Of a DNA stretch of 64,000 nt, positions 1,288 to 35,124 are shown piece by piece (the stretch's first letter is position 1; each line of letters opens with the position of its first letter). The stretch covers positions 755 to 64,754 of the forward strand of contig MVRV01000039.1 of the NCBI GenBank assembly GCA_002068015.1, written 5' to 3'. The notes under the pieces were generated by a model, which was not told the DNA's origin, did not search any database, and saw only the letters and a list, made by a program, of their open reading frames with translations. Source of the DNA: Smithella sp. PtaU1.Bin162 (lineage in GTDB: Bacteria > Desulfobacterota > Syntrophia > Syntrophales > Smithellaceae). A program made the position numbers and the translations under genes.

Positions 1288-1448
1288 ATTTCTCCGGATT
1301 AAAACGTTATTTGCTGGAAAAATTCCTTGTTCTTTAGCCTTGATTTTTCCAAACAGATTTTCCTGGATAATGATTGCAATTCAAGGAAACGGCTGTTTAT
1401 TGAAGGTTAAAGATCATGAAAAGAATATCAGGAGAGGAGAAGGATTTC

Positions 1449-4400
1449 ATGAATGTCAGCAGAAGAAGTTTCTTGAAGATTTCCGGTGCTGTGCTGGCAA
1501 CCAGTGGATTGGGCGTGAGTCTTAAACCGATAGCCGCGCACGCCCGGGAGTTGAAAATCAAATACGCCCAGAAAACCACCACTGTTTGCCCTTATTGTTC
1601 CGTGGGATGCAGCATTATCGTATCCGTTCGTGACGGTAAGGTCATCAACACCGAGGGGGATCCCGACAGTCCCATCAGCCGTGGATCACTCTGCAGCAAA
1701 GGCGGATCGATCTATCAGATGGCCGTGAACCAAAATCGTCTGGGCAAACCGCTTTACCGTGCGCCTTTTGCCACATCCTGGAAAGAAGTTGATTGGGAAT
1801 GGGCGCTTGCGAAGATCGCCGAAAATATCAAGAAAAGCCGGGACGTCAGTTTTAAAAAAACCAACAGCAAAGGTGAGCTCGTCAACCGCACCGAAGGCAT
1901 TGCCTCTGTGGGATCGGCGGCAATGGACCTGGAAGAGTGCTTCACATACCAAAAATTCCTGAGGGGGTTGGGCCTTGTTTATATTGAACATCAGGCCCGT
2001 ATCTGACACAGTCCAACTGTACCGGCTCTGGCAGAGTCGTTCGGACGTGGTGCAATGACCAATCACTGGGTCGATATAAAAAACAGTGACGTGATATTAA
2101 TTATGGGAAGCAACCCCGCTTCCAATCACCCTGTTTCCTTCAAGTGGATAATGGAAGCGGTGGAAAAGCGGGGCGCTAAGGTTATTTGTGTTGATCCGCG
2201 GTTTACGCAATCGGCATCGAAGTCGCATCTTTACGCGCCGCTTCGTTCCGGAACGGATATCGCTTTTCTGGGCGGTATGATCAAATACATTTTGGACAAC
2301 AATCTTTATTTTGAAGAATATGTTAAAAATTACACCAATGCCGGTTTCCTCGTCAATCCGGCCTTTAAAATGCCGGGACAAAATAAAGGCGTTTTTTCCG
2401 GGCTGACAAACGGCAAGTATGAAAAAGACACCTGGACGTATCAAACGGATGCGGAAGGAGTCATTAAAAAAGATAAAACACTGAATGATCCGAATTGCGT
2501 TTTCCAGCTTCTGAAAAAGCACTATTCACGTTACACGCCGGAACTTGTCGAGAAAATTACCGGAACGCCCAAAGACAAGCTGATTGAAATATACAAACTC
2601 TATGGTTCTACCGGTAAACCGGATAAGGCCGGAGTTGAGCTCTACGCCATGGGCTGGACGCAGCATACCGTCGGTGTGCAAAATATCCGCACCATGTGCA
2701 TAATCCAGTTGCTTTTGGGTAATATGGGTATTGCGGGCGGCGGGATTGCAGCGATGAGAGGCGAGGGTAATGTGCAGGGTTCCACCGATCACGGCCTTTT
2801 ATTCCATATCTGGCCCGGTTATCTGGGAACGCCTACCGCGTCGCTTACGACGCTCAAAGAATTCAACGAAAAACGCACACCCAAGACCAAGGAAAAGGAT
2901 TCGCTCAACTGGTGGAAAAATTTCCCGAAATATTCGGCGAGCTTCCTCAGATCCATGTACGGAACGAATCTGTCGATAGAAGATGCCTACAAAGTGATGC
3001 CGAAGCTCGATGACGGTGCCAATTACTCCTGGCTGACGATTTTTGATCAGATGTATAAGGGGCAATTTACCGGATTCTTTGCCTGGGGTATGAACCCCGC
3101 ATGCAGCGGTGCTCATTCCAACAAGGTCCGTCAGGCGATGACCAAACTCGACTGGATGGTCAACGTTAATCTGTTTGATAACGAAACGGGGTCTTTCTGG
3201 CGAGGCCCGGGTATGGATCCCGCGAAAATCAAGACGGAAGTTTTCCTGCTTCCCTGTGCTTCTTCCATCGAAAAGGAAGGCAGTATTGCCAACAGCGGCC
3301 GTCTGATGCAGTGGCGCTATAAGGCGGTCAATCCTCCGGGAGAGGCTCTGCCCGACGGCGACATCATGAGCGAAATCTTCTTCAAGGTAAAAGAACTCTA
3401 CGAGCAGAAGGGTGGTCCGCTCAAAGAAGCCATTACACAATTAACCTGGCCCTACGGTAAAATGGCCGGTAAGCATTTCCATTATGAGCCCCGTAAAGTC
3501 GCGGCTGAAATCAACGGCTTCTTCCTTACGGACAAGAAATTGGAAAACCCAACCAAAAAGGGCGAATTTAAAGAATTTAAAAAGGGTGATCTTGTACCGA
3601 CCTTTGCCTGGCTGCAGGATGACGGTTCCACCTCGTCCGGCTGCTGGATATACTGCGGATCGGTCACAGAAAAAGGCAATATGGCCATGCGCCGTGGACA
3701 GGCTGATCCCACGGGTTTGGGGCTCTTCTCCGAATGGGCCTGGTCGTGGCCGGTCAACCGCCGCATCATTTACAACGGCGCTTCAGTTGATCCCCAGGGT
3801 AATCCCTGGGATCCCAAGCGGGCGGTTATTAAATGGAGCGGTGAAAAGTGGGTAGGCGATGTTCCGGATGGGACGGGCAATCCCGGCAAGGGGCGGCCGC
3901 CGTTCATCATGAAGCCGGACGGTGTGGCGAGCCTCTATGGTCCGGGACTGGTCGACGGTCCCTTCCCCGAGCACTATGAACCGGTCGAGTGTCCTATAGA
4001 AAAGAATATTCTGTCGCCACAGAAGAATAATCCTGTCATTAAACGTTTTGACGCAAGCGGTGTCGGTTCCGATCTGGATGTTTACTCCGGTGTGACAACT
4101 TGTGATCCGCGCTATCCATTCATCTGCTCGACTTATCGGGTCAGCGAACACTGGCAGACGGGAGTGCTTACCCGCTGGTGTCCGTGGCTGGCGGAAATGC
4201 AACCGGGTATGTTTGTGGAGATAAGCCAGGAATTGGCCAAAGAAAGAGGTATTGTCAACGGAGATGAATGTATAGTTAAATCCGTGCGTGGACAAGTGGA
4301 GGCAAGGGCAATTGTCACCCCCCGTTTCAAACCATTTAACATTGACGGTAATACAATTCATGAAGTCGGTATTCCCTGGCATTATGGCTGGATTACGACC

Positions 4401-4556
4401 AAAGACCGGAAATACAACCCCGGCGACAAGAAAGCGGAAGTCTTCACCCAGGGTGACGCGGCAAATCTTCTGACTTCAACCATCGGCGATGCCAACACCA
4501 TGATTCCGGAGAGCAAAGCCTTTATGGTGAATGTTGCGAAGAAGGGGGTGAAGTAA
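1449..4556 (+). CDS. fdhA: Formate dehydrogenase alpha subunit, molybdopterin-containing, Tat-exported, selenocysteine-containing (in-frame TGA at 2004-2006)
   Basis: The track splits it into 1416-2006 and 2055-4556. Both pieces are in one frame and read YIEHQARI-TGA-HSPTVPALAESFGRGAMTNHW, the classic FDH Sec site. Twin-arginine signal MNVSRRSFLK. A GGAGAGGAGAAGG Shine-Dalgarno sequence sits before the ATG at 1449. N-terminal CPYCSVGC FeS motif. Confidence 0.93.
2007..2046 (+). promoter_or_regulatory. Putative bacterial SECIS stem-loop directly 3' of the fdhA UGA
   Basis: Outer arms gtccaac (2011-2017) and gttcggac (2039-2046, one bulge). Inner arms ggctct (2024-2029) and agagtc (2033-2038) close a G-rich apical loop. 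Drawn by hand, not folded computationally. Confidence 0.45.
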
Positions 4557-30422: not shown

Positions 30423-31538
30423 ATGTTGGAGTTTAATAATTTTGTCACAGCCGGTAAATTTTTCCTGGTTATTGCCGGTGAGCTTATTCTGATATTTGTT
30501 GCCGTTTCCTTTCTCATTGGACTGCTGACGGAATATCTTCCCCCGTCACGCATCAGAGATTTTTTGTCCAATAAGTTTATCTGGGTGCAATACTTTCTGG
30601 GCGCTGGTCTGGGTGCTATCACACCGTTTTGCTCCTGCTCGACCGTCCCGATCACAGCCGGACTGTTAAAAGGAGGCGTCCCTTTCGGACCCGTCATGGC
30701 CTTTCTTTTTTCCTCGCCGGTTTTGAATCCCGTCATTGTTGCGCTGTTGTTCTCGCTTCTTGGTTATAAAGTTACCTTGATTTATGTCGTTGTCACTTTC
30801 ATCGGTTCCATTACAATGGCGGCGTTACTTTCAAAAATGAGAATGGAAAATCAGGTTAAGTCACTGATTGGTATGGAATCTTCCTGCTGTGGTCAAGCGG
30901 CAAAACCGGATGGTGGAGCCGTGAAATCAGTTGCAGATCCCACGGGTTGCTGTTTTTCCGGCGCCGCCTCACCCGTAACCCTGATCACCCTGCCGACAAT
31001 TCAGGCAGCAGGTAGTTGTTGTGCGAGCAAAGAACCGCCGGTTATGCAAAAGGCTGACCAATCGTCCTGCTGTGCCGTCAGCTTCGATGCGAACACAGGA
31101 AGCGAATCAGAGCGGGTTCCCTTTAAAGAAAAGATGAAAAGAGCATCATTGTCCGCAATCGACACATTCAAGGGAGTGTTCTGGTATCTTCTCCTCGGTG
31201 CCGGGATAGGGGCTTTTATCTATGGATTTTTCCCGCAGGACCTTGTTGTTCAATTGGCGGGGCCGGGAAATCCCTGGTCCATTCCGATCGCAGCGGTTAT
31301 TGGCGTGCCTATGTACATCCGGGCAGAGACCATCATTCCTATAAGTGCTGCATTGGTAGGCAAGGGCATGGGGGTGGGAACAGTTCTTTCCCTTATCATC
31401 GGCGGGGCGGGGGCAAGCATCCCGGAGATCATTATTCTCAGTTCCATGTTCAAAAAGAAACTGATCTTCGCCTTCGTGCTGAATGTTTTTCTGGTCGCAA
31501 TTGTAGCCGGTTATATTGTGAATATTCTCGTTTATTAA
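30423..31538 (+). CDS. ArsP-like/UPF0718 (PF03773-type) permease with a Cys-pair-rich central loop
   Basis: TPFCSCSTVP motif in an early TM helix. The central soluble loop (about nt 30870-31130) contains SSCCGQ, TGCCFS, GSCCAS and SSCCAV. 371 aa and polytopic. Confidence 0.8.
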   Translation: MLEFNNFVTAGKFFLVIAGELILIFVAVSFLIGLLTEYLPPSRIRDFLSNKFIWVQYFLGAGLGAITPFCSCSTVPITAGLLKGGVPFGPVMAFLFSSPVLNPVIVALLFSLLGYKVTLIYVVVTFIGSITMAALLSKMRMENQVKSLIGMESSCCGQAAKPDGGAVKSVADPTGCCFSGAASPVTLITLPTIQAAGSCCASKEPPVMQKADQSSCCAVSFDANTGSESERVPFKEKMKRASLSAIDTFKGVFWYLLLGAGIGAFIYGFFPQDLVVQLAGPGNPWSIPIAAVIGVPMYIRAETIIPISAALVGKGMGVGTVLSLIIGGAGASIPEIIILSSMFKKKLIFAFVLNVFLVAIVAGYIVNILVY

Positions 31539-31627: not shown

Positions 31628-31975
31628 ATGGATAAATTTATTAAAGTAATGAAAGCATTGTCTGATCCAAATCGGGTTAGATTGATAAAGATATTGCAGA
31701 AAAGAGCACTATGCGTTTGTGAAATACAGGCTCTGTTTGAGATGGCTCAGCCGACCGTATCCAAGCACATGAAGTTAATGGAACAGGCAGGATTGGTAAA
31801 AGGAAATAAAGATGGCCTATGGGTGAATTATACGGCCGCTCACGGAAGCGATAATCCCTATGCGGCTAGTATTTTGGGCAATCTCCAACATTGGTTATCA
31901 GATGATGTAGTGTTTAAAAAAATGGAGAAAAAATTGCCGGAAATTAAAAGGGAAAATATTTGTAAGAAAAGCTAG
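31628..31975 (+). CDS. arsR: ArsR/SmtB family repressor with the canonical CVC metalloid site
   Basis: ALSDPNRVRLIKIL..RALCVCEIQALF..PTVSKHMKLMEQAGLV. The LCVCE motif matches the As(III)-binding ELCVCDL-type site. Confidence 0.88.
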   Translation: MDKFIKVMKALSDPNRVRLIKILQKRALCVCEIQALFEMAQPTVSKHMKLMEQAGLVKGNKDGLWVNYTAAHGSDNPYAASILGNLQHWLSDDVVFKKMEKKLPEIKRENICKKS

Positions 31976-32015: not shown

Positions 32016-32519
32016 ATGGATAATAAGACCATGCAGATTCAGGTGGGAGGCCGACTGACGGGCGTGGTCGGTCTGGAAAGTATACTTGCCGACGTTGCGC
32101 AATGGGCAAAAGGGAAAGAAGAAGCGGAAATCATGGTGGAGCTTCTCAGGCAAGTCGAAGTACGAAACTATATTCCTTCAAAAATTAACGAAATTTATGG
32201 GAAAGCCTTGTTGCGCGAATATAAAAAGTATTTGGGTGAAGCCGTCGAAGAAGAGGCAGTTGCCGGTTTGCAGGTTGTGATATTGGGGCCGGGTTGCGTC
32301 CAGTGCTCGTCTTTGGAATTACGCCTGCGGGATGTTATGGCCGAAATGAATCTGGCCGGCGATTTGACGCATATTACCGACGCGAATGATATCGCCCGAT
32401 ATGGTGTCATGGGAACTCCCGCGCTGATCATCAACGGAAAGGTCGTTGCCGTGGGCATTGTCCCGGAGAAGAAAAAAATCCAAGCCTGGCTCTCGGATGC
32501 CGTTGCGAAAATGGCGTAA
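32016..32519 (+). CDS. Thioredoxin-family protein: unknown N-terminal domain fused to a Thioredoxin_3 / redox-active disulfide protein 2 domain
   Basis: C-terminal half GPGCVQC...YGVMGTPALIINGKVV matches the small Trx-like family. I do not recognise the Cys-free N-terminal 80 aa or so. Confidence 0.7.
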   Translation: MDNKTMQIQVGGRLTGVVGLESILADVAQWAKGKEEAEIMVELLRQVEVRNYIPSKINEIYGKALLREYKKYLGEAVEEEAVAGLQVVILGPGCVQCSSLELRLRDVMAEMNLAGDLTHITDANDIARYGVMGTPALIINGKVVAVGIVPEKKKIQAWLSDAVAKMA

Positions 32520-32588: not shown

Positions 32589-33716
32589 ATGACAAAAAAA
32601 GCCCCGAAAATTTCAGAGCAGAATCTGCCACAATCAGGACCGAAGCGTCTAAATGTGTTTGAACGTTACCTCACGGTCTGGGTGTTGATCTGCATGGTCA
32701 TTGGCGTTGCTTTGGGTAAATTCCTTCCTGAGATTACAGCATCGCTCAGTGCAATGGAATTCGGAAAAGGATCTCAGGTCAATGTGCCTATTGCTATTCT
32801 TATCTGGCTGATGATTTTCCCCATGATGCTGAAGATTGACTTTGGGTCTTTAGGCAGCATTGCGCGTAAGCCCAAGGGACTGTTGATTACATTATTCGTC
32901 AACTGGTTGATTAAGCCTTTCAGCATGGCATTTTTGGCATGGCTGTTCATTCAGAATATTTTTTCTCTCTGGATTGATCCGGAAACCGCTAAAAGTTATA
33001 CTGCCGGTCTCATTATTCTTGCAGCTGCGCCCTGCACTGCCATGGTGTTTGTGTGGTCATACCTGACTGACGGTGACCCGGCCTACACGCTGGTTCAAGT
33101 GGCGGTAAACGACCTTATCATGCTGGTTGCATTTGCGCCGATTGTCATGTTTCTTCTTGGTGTGGCTGATGTTGTTGTCCCTTCCAAAGTATTGATTACG
33201 TCTGTTGTTGTATTTATTGTGATACCCTTGGTGGCAGGATTCATCACCAGGACTGTTTTGCTGAAAAAATACGGTACCAATTGGTTTGAGACTAAATTCC
33301 TGTCCAAGTTTCATCCCGTGACTGTAATTGCACTGCTTCTGACGCTTTTGCTTATCTTTGCTTTTCAGGCGGAAAATCTTACGACCAAATGGATCGCGGT
33401 TATCCTGATTGCCATTCCCATTTTGATTCAGGTTTATTTTAACTCCAGCCTTACCTATCTGCTCATGCGGTTGTTTAAGGTTCAACACAATGTGGCGTCT
33501 CCGGGTGCACTTATAGGAGCCAGCAATTTTTTTGAGCTTGCAGTAGCCGTGGCAATTACGCTTTTCGGGCCGAGTTCCGGCGCGGCGCTGGCCTGCGTAG
33601 TAGGCGTGCTGGTGGAAGTGCCGGTGATGTTGTCGGTCTGTACAATCTGTAACCGATCACAGGGCTGGTATAATCGAACGTTCCCTGCAAAAACAATGAA
33701 TGTGTGTGAAAAATAG
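32589..33716 (+). CDS. acr3: Arsenite efflux transporter, ACR3 family
   Basis: LNVFERYLTVWVLICM N-terminus. Signature ILAAAPCTAMVFVW. About 10 TM helices. Confidence 0.92.
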   Translation: MTKKAPKISEQNLPQSGPKRLNVFERYLTVWVLICMVIGVALGKFLPEITASLSAMEFGKGSQVNVPIAILIWLMIFPMMLKIDFGSLGSIARKPKGLLITLFVNWLIKPFSMAFLAWLFIQNIFSLWIDPETAKSYTAGLIILAAAPCTAMVFVWSYLTDGDPAYTLVQVAVNDLIMLVAFAPIVMFLLGVADVVVPSKVLITSVVVFIVIPLVAGFITRTVLLKKYGTNWFETKFLSKFHPVTVIALLLTLLLIFAFQAENLTTKWIAVILIAIPILIQVYFNSSLTYLLMRLFKVQHNVASPGALIGASNFFELAVAVAITLFGPSSGAALACVVGVLVEVPVMLSVCTICNRSQGWYNRTFPAKTMNVCEK

Positions 33717-33881
33717 CAATTATGAAGATGTTAAAAATGAATAAACAGAGCGAAGATTTACAAAACGTTTGTGCCAATTCTCGGTCGAAGAAAGCTTTCA
33801 GAATGCTTGGCGGTCTTAAGGAAGGTAAGGGAGATTGCGCCGCAACGGCGGAAAAATATAAGGAAGAATGGGGAAAACATA

Positions 33882-34130
33882 ATGACGGATAAAGAAATAC
33901 TGATTTACGGCACCGATACTTGCCCTTTTTGCAAGCAGGCACGTGCGGCCTACGGGGACAGGGCTGTCTTTATCAATGTGGAGAAGGACGAAGCAAAACT
34001 AAGCGAAATGCTGGCCTTATCAGGCGGCAGAAGACAGGTGCCGGTGATTGTGGAAGACGATAAGGTGACGGTCGGGTTTGCAGGAGAGGTATCGCTCCGT
34101 GGCGGGATACCACTGTTCGGTGGTACCTGA
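33882..34130 (+). CDS. Glutaredoxin-like protein (CPFC active site)
   Basis: MTDKEILIYGTDTCPFCKQA...RRQVPVIVEDDKV is a Grx fold. Start chosen at the ATG at 33882. Confidence 0.8.
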   Translation: MTDKEILIYGTDTCPFCKQARAAYGDRAVFINVEKDEAKLSEMLALSGGRRQVPVIVEDDKVTVGFAGEVSLRGGIPLFGGT

Positions 34131-34187
34131 TCTGTATGAAGTCTCTCGTGCAGAGATTATAAAGAAATGACAGAAGGAGATAAAGTG

Positions 34188-34483
34188 ATGTTTGAAGTAA
34201 CAGAAGAAGCAAGCCGTATGTTGAAAGACTTTCTGACCAAGCAAAAAAGCACAAAAGCCATCCGAATTATGATGCAAACCGGCTGAGGCAGGCCCAAACT
34301 GGGCTTGGCTATGGATAAGCCGCAGGATAACGACGTTACATTTAAGGTTCAGGATATTACATATCTCGTTGAAAAAAAATATTTGATCAAGCCAAACCGA
34401 TTAAGATCGATTTCGTTAAGTCCTTTATGAGGTCGGGATTTCAACTGACGTCAAGCCTCCCTGCGGGAGGCGGGTGCTGTTGA
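34188..34483 (+). CDS. HesB/IscA-like selenoprotein candidate (in-frame TGA at 34284-34286; the reading frame must shift -1 in the A8 run at 34372-34379)
   Basis: Translation is MFEVTEEASRMLKDFLTKQKSTKAIRIMMQTG-U-GRPKLGLAMDKPQDNDVTFKVQDITYLVEKK, then in the -1 frame IFDQAKPIKIDFVKSFMRSGFQLTSSLPAGGGCC. It aligns by eye with IscA: SGCSG matches TGUGR and LDFVKEG..GF matches IDFVKSF..GF. AAGGAGA Shine-Dalgarno sequence upstream. Not in the ORF track because of the TGA. Confidence 0.6.
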
Positions 34484-34735
34484 AACGGTTTTATGCGTAG
34501 GTTCTATTTCTAAAAACTCCAATTCCAAAAATGAAGCGCATAACTTGATAACCTGAATTTCACACGAGGTCACAAGTCGGAATTGGTTATTCGAATTGCC
34601 CCTTATAAGCGCGGATATAATTACCAGCAGCTTGCTGGTAAATCTATTTCCGAAGCGTGCGTTGGGATTTATACCAGCGATTCAGAGGCGCCGGACAGTC
34701 ATGACTGGTGCCATTTAATTTTTAAAAAAAAGTGA

Positions 34736-34772
34736 TTGACAGGTAATGGCTATTTGGCTAAATGACCAAATA
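34736..34772 (+). promoter_or_regulatory. Candidate promoter and ArsR operator of the second ArsR operon
   Basis: TTGACA (34736-34741). Dyad TATTTGG-N8-CCAAATA (34751-34757 and 34766-34772) overlaps the likely -10 (TAAATG, 34759-34764). Confidence 0.45.
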
Positions 34773-34791
34773 GCATAAAGGATAAAAACAG

Positions 34792-35124
34792 ATGGAAAGT
34801 TACGTAAAGCCTCAGCATGAGGCGCGGGCAAAAATTATCAAGGCCATGGCACACCCCAGCCGGCTGTTTATTATTGAGGAACTAAGTAAACATGAACGTT
34901 GCGTGGGAGAGCTGACGGAAATGATCGGATCCGATGCTTCGACCGTGTCCAAACATTTGAGTGTTTTGAAGAATGCGGGCCTGGTGACCGATGAGAAACG
35001 GGGGAATTCCATTTACTACAGCCTGCGCGTTCCTTGCATCATGCAATTTATGGGATGTGTGGAGGATGTGTTGTCCGCCAATGCGAAACAACACAATGCG
35101 ATTTTAAAATGCTGTAAGGGCTGA
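34792..35124 (+). CDS. ArsR/SmtB family regulator with C-terminal Cys cluster (CVG instead of CVC; C-terminal KCCKG)
   Basis: AMAHPSRLFIIEELSKHERCVGELTEM..STVSKHLSVLKNAGLV. C-terminal VPCIMQFMGC...ILKCCKG. Confidence 0.88.
   Translation: MESYVKPQHEARAKIIKAMAHPSRLFIIEELSKHERCVGELTEMIGSDASTVSKHLSVLKNAGLVTDEKRGNSIYYSLRVPCIMQFMGCVEDVLSANAKQHNAILKCCKG

Follow-up and report, generated by a model that had tools for sequence, protein, structure and literature searches.

An unannotated IscA/HesB-type selenoprotein gene with a one-base deletion in an A8 run, at the end of an arsenic-type operon of Smithella sp. PtaU1.Bin162

We analyzed a stretch of 64,000 nucleotides from Smithella sp. PtaU1.Bin162 (the window) and found that positions 34188 to 34483 of its forward strand hold a gene that is missing from the annotation and that has lost one base relative to its orthologs. 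The gene is a member of an already known IscA/HesB-type selenoprotein family; what is new is an unannotated copy with a real one-base deletion, located in a run of eight A's (A8). We consider it probable that this deletion is recent, lineage specific, and not programmed and that it left the gene inactivated or strongly attenuated, possibly leaky.

RESULTS

Layout of the gene

A preliminary description, made from the sequence letters, had proposed a gene at this locus that was absent from the open reading frame (ORF) track. Inspection of positions 34188 to 34483 recovered its ATG, the in-frame TGA, the A8 run, and the -1-frame remainder where they had been placed; all features of the gene lie on the + strand. 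The proposed Shine-Dalgarno sequence AAGGAGA was found at 34174 to 34180, 7 to 8 nt 5′ of the ATG at 34188, and the orthologs have a GGAG-type site at the equivalent place, 5′ of their MFEVT start. Codons 1 to 32 (34188 to 34283; MFEVTEEASRMLKDFLTKQKSTKAIRIMMQTG) begin with the N-terminal MFEVTEEA that is kept in all orthologs. They are followed by an in-frame UGA as codon 33 (34284 to 34286), which we read as selenocysteine (Sec). Frame 0 continues through codons 34 to 64 (34287 to 34379; GRPKLGLAMDKPQDNDVTFKVQDITYLVEKK), a segment of 31 sense codons that ends with GTT GAA AAA AAA, and the frame is broken within the A8 run (34372 to 34379), where one base is deleted relative to the orthologs. 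The last seven positions of the run (34373 to 34379) form an A_AAA_AAA heptamer in phase with frame 0.

Beyond the run, frame 0 encodes an out-of-frame tail of 16 residues (YLIKPNRLRSISLSPL) and stops at a TGA at 34428 to 34430 (tail and stop, 34380 to 34430); no similarity of this tail to any family member was found. The -1 frame encodes the C-terminal 34 codons (IFDQAKPIKIDFVKSFMRSGFQLTSSLPAGGGCC) and ends at a TGA at 34481 to 34483 (segment and stop, 34379 to 34483). This segment bears the C-terminal Cys-Cys of the family (GGGCC-stop), and both the break inside the A8 run and the continuation of the -1 frame to GGGCC were as originally described. Across the run, the full-length peptide would read ...YLVEKKIFDQAK..., versus ...YLVEKKYLIK... 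in the unshifted frame. The mechanically generated ORF list contains only two short fragments at the locus (34167 to 34286 and 34305 to 34430), which fits an annotation that missed the gene. An exact look-up of the 41-aa frame-0 ORF returned no record, and no second, intact copy of the gene was present in the 64-kb window.

Family membership and the selenocysteine position

For scoring by hidden Markov models (HMMs), the translation was used with Sec read as Cys and with one A added (the repaired product; 98 aa). It matched NCBIfam model NF038090 (IscA_HesB_Se) with 105.4 bits (E = 1.5e-30; cutoff, 85), residues 1 to 98 aligning with profile positions 1 to 99 of 101, and the proposed identity as an IscA/HesB-like selenoprotein was thereby upheld. 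The unrepaired frame-0 product scored 61.3 bits, under the cutoff of 85, so that only the ancestral or repaired gene counts as a member of NF038090. Both halves of the gene, 5′ and 3′ of the frame break, aligned with the same orthologs, which together with the full-length score of the repaired product places the match well beyond chance. Model TIGR01911 (HesB_rel_seleno) gave 37.5 bits, below its cutoff of 66.35; the gene is related to that subfamily, is not a member of it, and belongs to the NF038090 branch. The HesB-like proteins have long been recognized as a family of selenoproteins (PMC1794560).

The general Pfam model Fe-S_biosyn barely detected the repaired protein, which also did not reach the cutoff of TIGR00049 or those of the IscA, SufA, and ErpA models. 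The best match among solved structures was E. coli IscA (1r94/1s98), covering residues 5 to 89 with a weak score (22 bits). The Sec codon aligned exactly with Cys35 of E. coli IscA, and IDFVKSFMRSGF of the -1 frame aligned with LDFVKEGLNEGF, in agreement with the earlier suggestion that this frame matches the IscA LDFVKEG..GF region.

Orthologs were retrieved from metagenomes and metagenome-assembled genomes (MAGs) at 65 to 78% identity. The TGA occupied the same codon in at least 10 of them (L002, L008, L009/L023-26, L010, L012, L018/L019, L020, and L021) and in a more distant ortholog, L013. An exhaustive profile search, in which the C-terminal fragments of the orthologs served as queries, yielded many full-length homologs with a Cys at the Sec position in GC[SG]GP contexts (P0014, P0041, P0044, P0078, and others). 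Alignment with the HesB-like family and its Cys-containing orthologs, which had been recommended as a check, thus revealed a Sec/Cys pair, and the TGA indeed stands at the first conserved Cys. Orthologs with neither Cys nor Sec at this position had been named as evidence that would speak against the assignment. A paralogous Trp branch of this kind exists (GGW[RK]GP; L003, L004, L005, L014, and L015; 41 to 46% identity; different C-terminus), and we rejected it as a refutation; the Sec assignment stands because the close orthologs all have TGA and many homologs have Cys.

The intact protein of the relatives is 98 aa long and shares the C-terminal SSLPAGGGCC. The HesB-like motif has been tabulated as U-x-G-P (PMC13188914), and all orthologs read U-G-G-P or U-S-G-P, unlike the window and the closely related contig L011, which read U-G-R-P (codon AGG). 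This Gly-to-Arg substitution is a lineage-specific change at an otherwise invariant Gly.

Candidate SECIS hairpins and Sec decoding

Two overlapping, mutually exclusive hairpins were found after the UGA and were compared with the published bacterial SECIS (bSECIS) consensus, namely, a loop of 3 to 9 nt with a G in its first two positions, a stem of at least 4 bp, a spacing of 16 to 37 nt, and an MFE of -7.5 kcal/mol or lower. Hairpin H1 (CAGGCCCA-AAC-UGGGCUUG; 34289 to 34307, with stems 34289-96/34300-07; -11.0 kcal/mol) has a conserved CCCA/UGGG core. It corresponds to the structure placed at 34287 to 34309 in the preliminary description, which is present but departs from the consensus in two of the four points: there is no G in its AAC loop, and only 10 nt separate the loop from the UGA. 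The second hairpin (CUGGGCUUG / UAAGCC-G-CAG, with an 8-nt loop, GCUAUGGA; 34299 to 34325, with stems 34299-307/34316-25; -11.5 kcal/mol) has a loop that begins with G and a spacing of 21 nt, and it agrees with the consensus in all four points. The region from 34284 to 34340, singled out earlier for a SECIS prediction, therefore does contain a SECIS-like structure, in the form of this overlapping hairpin.

The lower stem in the orthologs, at the same place, is CUG/CAG, and the upper stem is GCUC-UGGAY-GAGC; the window lineage has three nonsynonymous substitutions (M40L, E44K, and Q45P) that jointly give one longer helix. No covariation was detectable for either candidate hairpin, as the region is conserved coding sequence that encodes the GGPKLGMALDE segment. 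A SECIS function of the hairpin at 34299 to 34325 would be compatible with these data, as far as the predicted folding goes.

Two other genes of the window contain a Sec UGA: that for the formate dehydrogenase FdhA (HQARI-UGA-HSPTV) and the glutaredoxin (Grx)-like UXX-star gene described below. As had been expected from fdhA, their presence implies a genome that would decode Sec. No tRNA-Sec was found within the 64-kb window, and no sel genes were found among the ten large ORFs of the window that were scanned. An Rfam scan of positions 33700 to 34900 (E up to 10) gave chance-level matches to eukaryotic snoRNAs and miRNAs only.

Operon context and the upstream UXX-star selenoprotein gene

The HesB-like gene is, as described, the last gene of the arsR-acr3 operon. 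It is preceded by genes for ArsR (31628 to 31975), an ArsE/MTH895-type thioredoxin-like protein (32016 to 32519), Acr3 (32589 to 33716), and a Grx-like protein (33882 to 34139, + strand) and is followed by a second ArsR/thioredoxin unit. The nearest named relatives of the neighboring gene are from Syntrophales, Syntrophus, and Smithella MAGs.

The Grx-like gene matched NF041114 (UXX-star selenoprotein family 1) with 89.7 bits (cutoff, 72). The TGA at 34128 to 34130, which looks like the stop of the gene, is the Sec codon; it is followed by TCT GTA TGA, with the true stop at 34137 to 34139, giving the ending ...GGT-Sec-Ser-Val-stop. All nine orthologous loci that carry the upstream Grx-like gene have GGT-TGA-(S/A)-V-stop. 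That this gene is itself a UXX-star selenoprotein gene was missed at first reading. Between the two genes lies a noncoding hairpin, GUCUCU-CGUGC-AGAGAU (34141 to 34157, + strand). Its general form, GUCUCU-CGUGN-AGAGAC, is conserved in nine of nine loci even though it is noncoding, and it also occurs 5′ of the gene remnant in L006. This hairpin is likely the SECIS of the upstream UXX-star gene.

Wherever the Grx(UXX-star)/HesB(Sec) pair was observed, it was syntenic, with Acr3, an ArsM-like methyltransferase, or DUF169 encoded on its 5′ side and, usually, ArsR plus thioredoxin on its 3′ side. The intact HesB-like protein would have an IscA fold in which Sec takes the place of the first Cys that binds a cluster or metal, together with a Cys-Cys end; it has been proposed that the Sec residues of such proteins may serve as ligands of metals or metalloids (PMC13188914). 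From the synteny with arsenic-type operons, we infer a role of the pair related to As(III): it may constitute a Se/S thiol-redox or metalloid-binding module that serves as a chaperone or reductase helper in As(III) handling.

The one-base deletion is present in the DNA

Homopolymers are classic sites of indel errors, and the A8 run had been flagged as a possible sequencing error; the true genome would then have A9 and an intact gene, and the frame break would have arisen during sequencing or assembly. The same A8 run, however, was found in JGI metagenome contig L011 (Ga0228535), which aligns with the window over 6293 nt at 99.33% identity (42 mismatches and not a single gap), as well as in L016 (a Logan assembly of SRR7110664) and in L017 (a contig of a different JGI sample). 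Including the window, four assemblies thus contain A8, and the three others come from at least two further samples, with two assemblers represented. The remaining homopolymers of the window also argue against an error. The window has 11 stretches of eight A or T residues, with no longer homopolymer, and ∼60 stretches of 7 nt; apart from 34372 to 34379, those of at least 7 nt lie inside long intact ORFs or outside ORFs, so that none of the ten other 8-nt runs and none of the 7-nt runs breaks a long frame. A product of the A9 type (a C-terminal ORF of 57 to 59 aa at ∼100% identity) was missing from 5.8 billion protein clusters, a collection in which equivalent C-terminal fragments have been called for six other lineages. 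The one-base deletion is real in the DNA, and a sequencing or assembly artifact is very unlikely. A further contig, L007, has an identical N-terminus and ends 14 nt after the UGA, which makes it uninformative on the A-run.

The same data bear on phase variation, in which A8 (off) and A9 (on) would interconvert by replication slippage and produce on and off subpopulations. Runs of 8 to 9 A's are hypermutable. A8 belongs to the longest homopolymer class of the window, where long runs are underrepresented (11 observed versus 24 expected), and an A9 run would be unusually unstable. Against such switching, all four consensus sequences read A8, no A9 allele appeared in the protein collection, and nothing else suggests homopolymer switches in this organism. 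We therefore give phase variation little credence.

Origin of the frame break

The orthologs read the site in a single frame, GAA AAA GAA TTA (or CTG) TTT GAT (E-K-E-L-F-D), without an A-run; this was the case in nine of nine distinct orthologous lineages and in P0001 to P0006. The window reads GAA AAA AAA -TA TTT GAT, a sequence that can be reached by changing a G to A and a T to A, or by equivalent steps, together with the loss of one base. The deletion is absent from all orthologs. The A8 run is shared only with the 99.3%-identical strain represented by L011, and the two-frame arrangement is not conserved beyond it.

Programmed -1 frameshifting on the heptamer, as envisaged at first, was not borne out, since no ortholog has an A-run or a frame change and no convincing stimulator was found. 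The heptamer has the slippery form X_XXY_YYZ in the correct phase, but a one-base deletion in poly-A creates such a heptamer automatically in two of three phases; the heptamer alone is thus no evidence of programming. No Shine-Dalgarno-like element was located 10 to 14 nt 5′ of the A8 run (the closest AGGA ends 18 nt before it). The predicted downstream structure (-25.3 kcal/mol over 91 nt) was not significant, with a z score of -1.49 and 15 of 200 shuffled sequences being as good. In E. coli, A_AAA_AAA is frameshift prone, the motif is frequent in IS3 and IS1 elements, and heptamers that lack stimulators yield 2 to 10 times the background of ∼0.055%, that is, roughly 0.1 to 0.5% frameshifting (PMC4066793).

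Transcriptional slippage usually involves conserved runs of at least 9 nt, and the run in the window is 8 nt long and unconserved. [quoted passage not shown]

These observations also bear on a selected double recoding. Here, SECIS-directed UGA-to-Sec decoding at codon 33 would be combined with restoration of the frame 29 codons later, either by a -1 slip of the ribosome on A_AAA_AAA or by the insertion of one extra A when RNA polymerase transcribes A8, and selection would keep expression very low or conditional or would favor the formation of two products. In addition to the in-phase heptamer and the precedents from IS elements (for the heptamer itself, PMC4066793; for productive slippage on 8 A's, PMC1088944), several features are consistent with this scenario: -1 is the direction that restores the frame, the downstream frame is intact, the arrangement is common to two strains, and an imperfect stem-loop begins 5 nt 3′ of the run. 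However, the arrangement is confined to two strains that are 99.3% identical, whereas the nine other lineages are single frame; the heptamer is of the kind that poly-A deletions produce by default; the downstream structure is weak and the upstream element is missing; and, with inefficient Sec insertion added, the yield would be very small. We consider a selected double recoding to be unlikely.

A nonprogrammed deletion, our preferred reading, would have arisen in a few steps. Two substitutions would have turned GAA AAA GAA TTA into a long A-run, from which one base was then lost, leaving A8. Under normal decoding, the allele would yield either a 32-aa peptide, if the UGA terminates translation, or an 80-aa product without the C-terminal Cys-Cys, if Sec is inserted; with either product, the gene would have become a pseudogene recently or would be a strongly attenuated allele. 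Judged from the sequence, the A8 allele has presumably lost its function. By analogy with the cases cited above, a low-level accidental rescue is plausible, in which RNA polymerase slippage on A8 (+1 A) or -1 ribosomal slippage would produce a small full-length fraction.

Decay or constraint

The -1 frame after the A-run is fully intact and keeps every family motif, with no further sign of decay. The divergence of the HesB-like gene relative to that of the Grx-like gene was 1.45 for the window versus 1.34 for the other lineages and thus was not elevated. At seven columns where the other lineages show no variation, the window has a different residue (G35R, E44K, E78K, and G82R among them), and L021 likewise has seven such deviations. 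Since M40L, E44K, and Q45P lengthen the SECIS-like stem, these substitutions are not clean evidence of decay; the lineage seems to have remodeled the SECIS-like hairpin by three joint substitutions rather than to have lost it. The two A8 strains differ at 0.67% of positions, with one substitution in the gene, and are therefore too close for selection to be measured.

Lesions were also found in relatives. L010 carries a nonsense mutation (CAA to TAA) at codon 19, the Smithella MAG L006 has a deletion of ∼200 nt that extends from the Shine-Dalgarno sequence through codon 63, and L027 has a TGA-to-TTA (Sec-to-Leu) change. The HesB-like partner has thus been damaged repeatedly in nature, in line with published accounts of selenoproteins being lost frequently. 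Overall, the evidence for decay is mixed and, on balance, favors a lesion of recent date over long-standing decay: the loss of an invariant Gly and the lesions in relatives stand against an intact frame, normal divergence, and a retained helix. The intact frame, the normal divergence, the kept helix, and the sharing of the allele fit a very recent lesion and a selected, slippage-expressed allele equally well.

DISCUSSION

Standard gene callers truncate or overlook the two tandem selenoprotein genes of the window, and the HesB-like copy should be flagged in annotation as frameshifted and not be silently repaired. The Grx(UXX-star)/HesB(Sec) pair constitutes a tightly conserved two-gene module on arsenic-type operons (Acr3, ArsM-like, ArsR, and ArsE-like thioredoxin), and its occurrence in Syntrophales-type anaerobes points to a candidate selenium-based step in metalloid handling. 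Expression of the A8 allele by slippage would make this small gene a rare example of combined Sec and frameshift recoding, a reading that the evidence does not favor.

With the NF038090/HesB-like family (Zhang, Gladyshev, and co-workers; PMC1794560), the gene shares a full-length HMM match with Sec at the first IscA Cys, a length of 98 aa, and the MFEVTEEA and SSLPAGGGCC termini of its orthologs. It also shares the occurrence in selenoprotein-rich anaerobes of the Syntrophales/deltaproteobacterial type, as indicated by the names of related Grx proteins and by the literature (PMC1794560). It differs from its NF038090 orthologs by the one-base deletion in a lineage-specific A-run and by the U-G-R-P motif. 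The A-type Fe-S carriers IscA, SufA, and ErpA of E. coli match at the level of the fold, and their first ligand Cys aligns with the Sec; in contrast to these carriers, the C-terminus encoded by the window gene is Cys-Cys-COOH instead of C-G-C, and the genomic context consists of arsenic and thiol-redox genes instead of isc or suf.

The in-phase A_AAA_AAA is a feature in common with the programmed -1 sites of dnaX and of IS1/IS3 elements, the motif being frequent in IS3 and IS1. Unlike those sites, the window site shows no conservation, no Shine-Dalgarno-like stimulator at the right distance, and no significant structure, and its frame-0 product has no plausible role. A resemblance is also seen to genes with frameshifts that are rescued at poly-A tracts, such as apoB (A8), endosymbiont tracts, and tssM of Citrobacter rodentium (PMC1088944 and PMC4256274). 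The run in the window is at the lower length limit, and its rescue, unlike in those genes, is only predicted. As in those genes, the indel lies in an A-run of at least 8 nt, the downstream frame is intact, and the addition of one A to the mRNA would be mechanistically plausible.

A second selenoprotein gene upstream of the HesB-like gene

The glutaredoxin-like gene that lies directly upstream of the HesB-like gene encodes a second selenoprotein, which is of the UXX-star type. Together with its 3′ hairpin it spans positions 33882 to 34157 of the window, and it matched the NF041114 profile with 89.7 bits (cutoff 72). The apparent stop codon TGA at 34128 to 34130 is directly followed by TCT GTA TGA, so that the gene ends in Sec-Ser-Val-stop. 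A conserved, noncoding hairpin is located 3′ of this ending (34141 to 34157) and probably serves as the SECIS of the gene. Both the Sec-containing ending and the hairpin were retained in all nine orthologous loci. Sec decoding by this genome follows from the formate dehydrogenase alpha subunit (1416 to 4556), which carries a twin-arginine-type signal and reads HQARI-U-HSPTV across an in-frame TGA (2004 to 2006); ORF callers cut this gene into pieces of 196 and 833 amino acids.

The HesB-like gene in related loci

Independent lesions of the HesB-like gene were found in three related contigs. Codon 19 was changed from CAA to TAA in L010 (3055 to 3057), and the Sec codon TGA was changed to TTA (Leu) in L027 (1162 to 1164), while five sibling contigs of the latter kept TGA at this position. 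In L006 (1 to 165), a Smithella MAG, approximately 200 nt had been deleted, from the Shine-Dalgarno sequence up to and including codon 63; only the C-terminal third of the gene remained, placed after the upstream hairpin.

A third contig, L007 (ENA k141_575042), carries a rearranged copy or else is a short chimera. Its positions 545 to 695 correspond to 34150 to 34300 of the window, with an identical N-terminal half of the HesB-like gene; codon 35 is ATG in L007 versus AGG in the window. Left of 34150, the two sequences are entirely unlike: L007 lacks the glutaredoxin-like gene, and a 93-amino-acid ORF runs into the HesB-like gene. The contig stops short of the A8 run (34372 to 34379).

Five further contigs (L003, L004, L005, L014, and L015, from position 4001 or 3001 onward) contain a paralogous branch of this small protein family. 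It shares the MFEVTEEA start with the HesB-like proteins; Trp in the motif GGW[RK]GP replaces their Sec or Cys, and the C terminus is longer and Cys rich (e.g., CHEICSSC).

Flanking elements of the ars operon

A conserved GGCTATTTGGCTAAATGACCAAATAGC-like palindrome was observed at 34745 to 34790, immediately 5′ of the second arsR gene (34792 to 35124), and was found in the same location in L006 (265 to 300) and in the related contig L008 (960 to 1000). The palindrome is probably the ArsR operator. Just upstream of the ars operon, a 371-amino-acid membrane protein with many CC and SCC motifs is encoded (30423 to 31538), which may constitute a distinct family of metal or metalloid exporters. Selenoproteins occur among some members of the SaoE and SO_0444 Cu/Zn efflux transporter families, which the membrane protein resembles with a score of about 116 bits, far under their cutoffs of 300 to 325.
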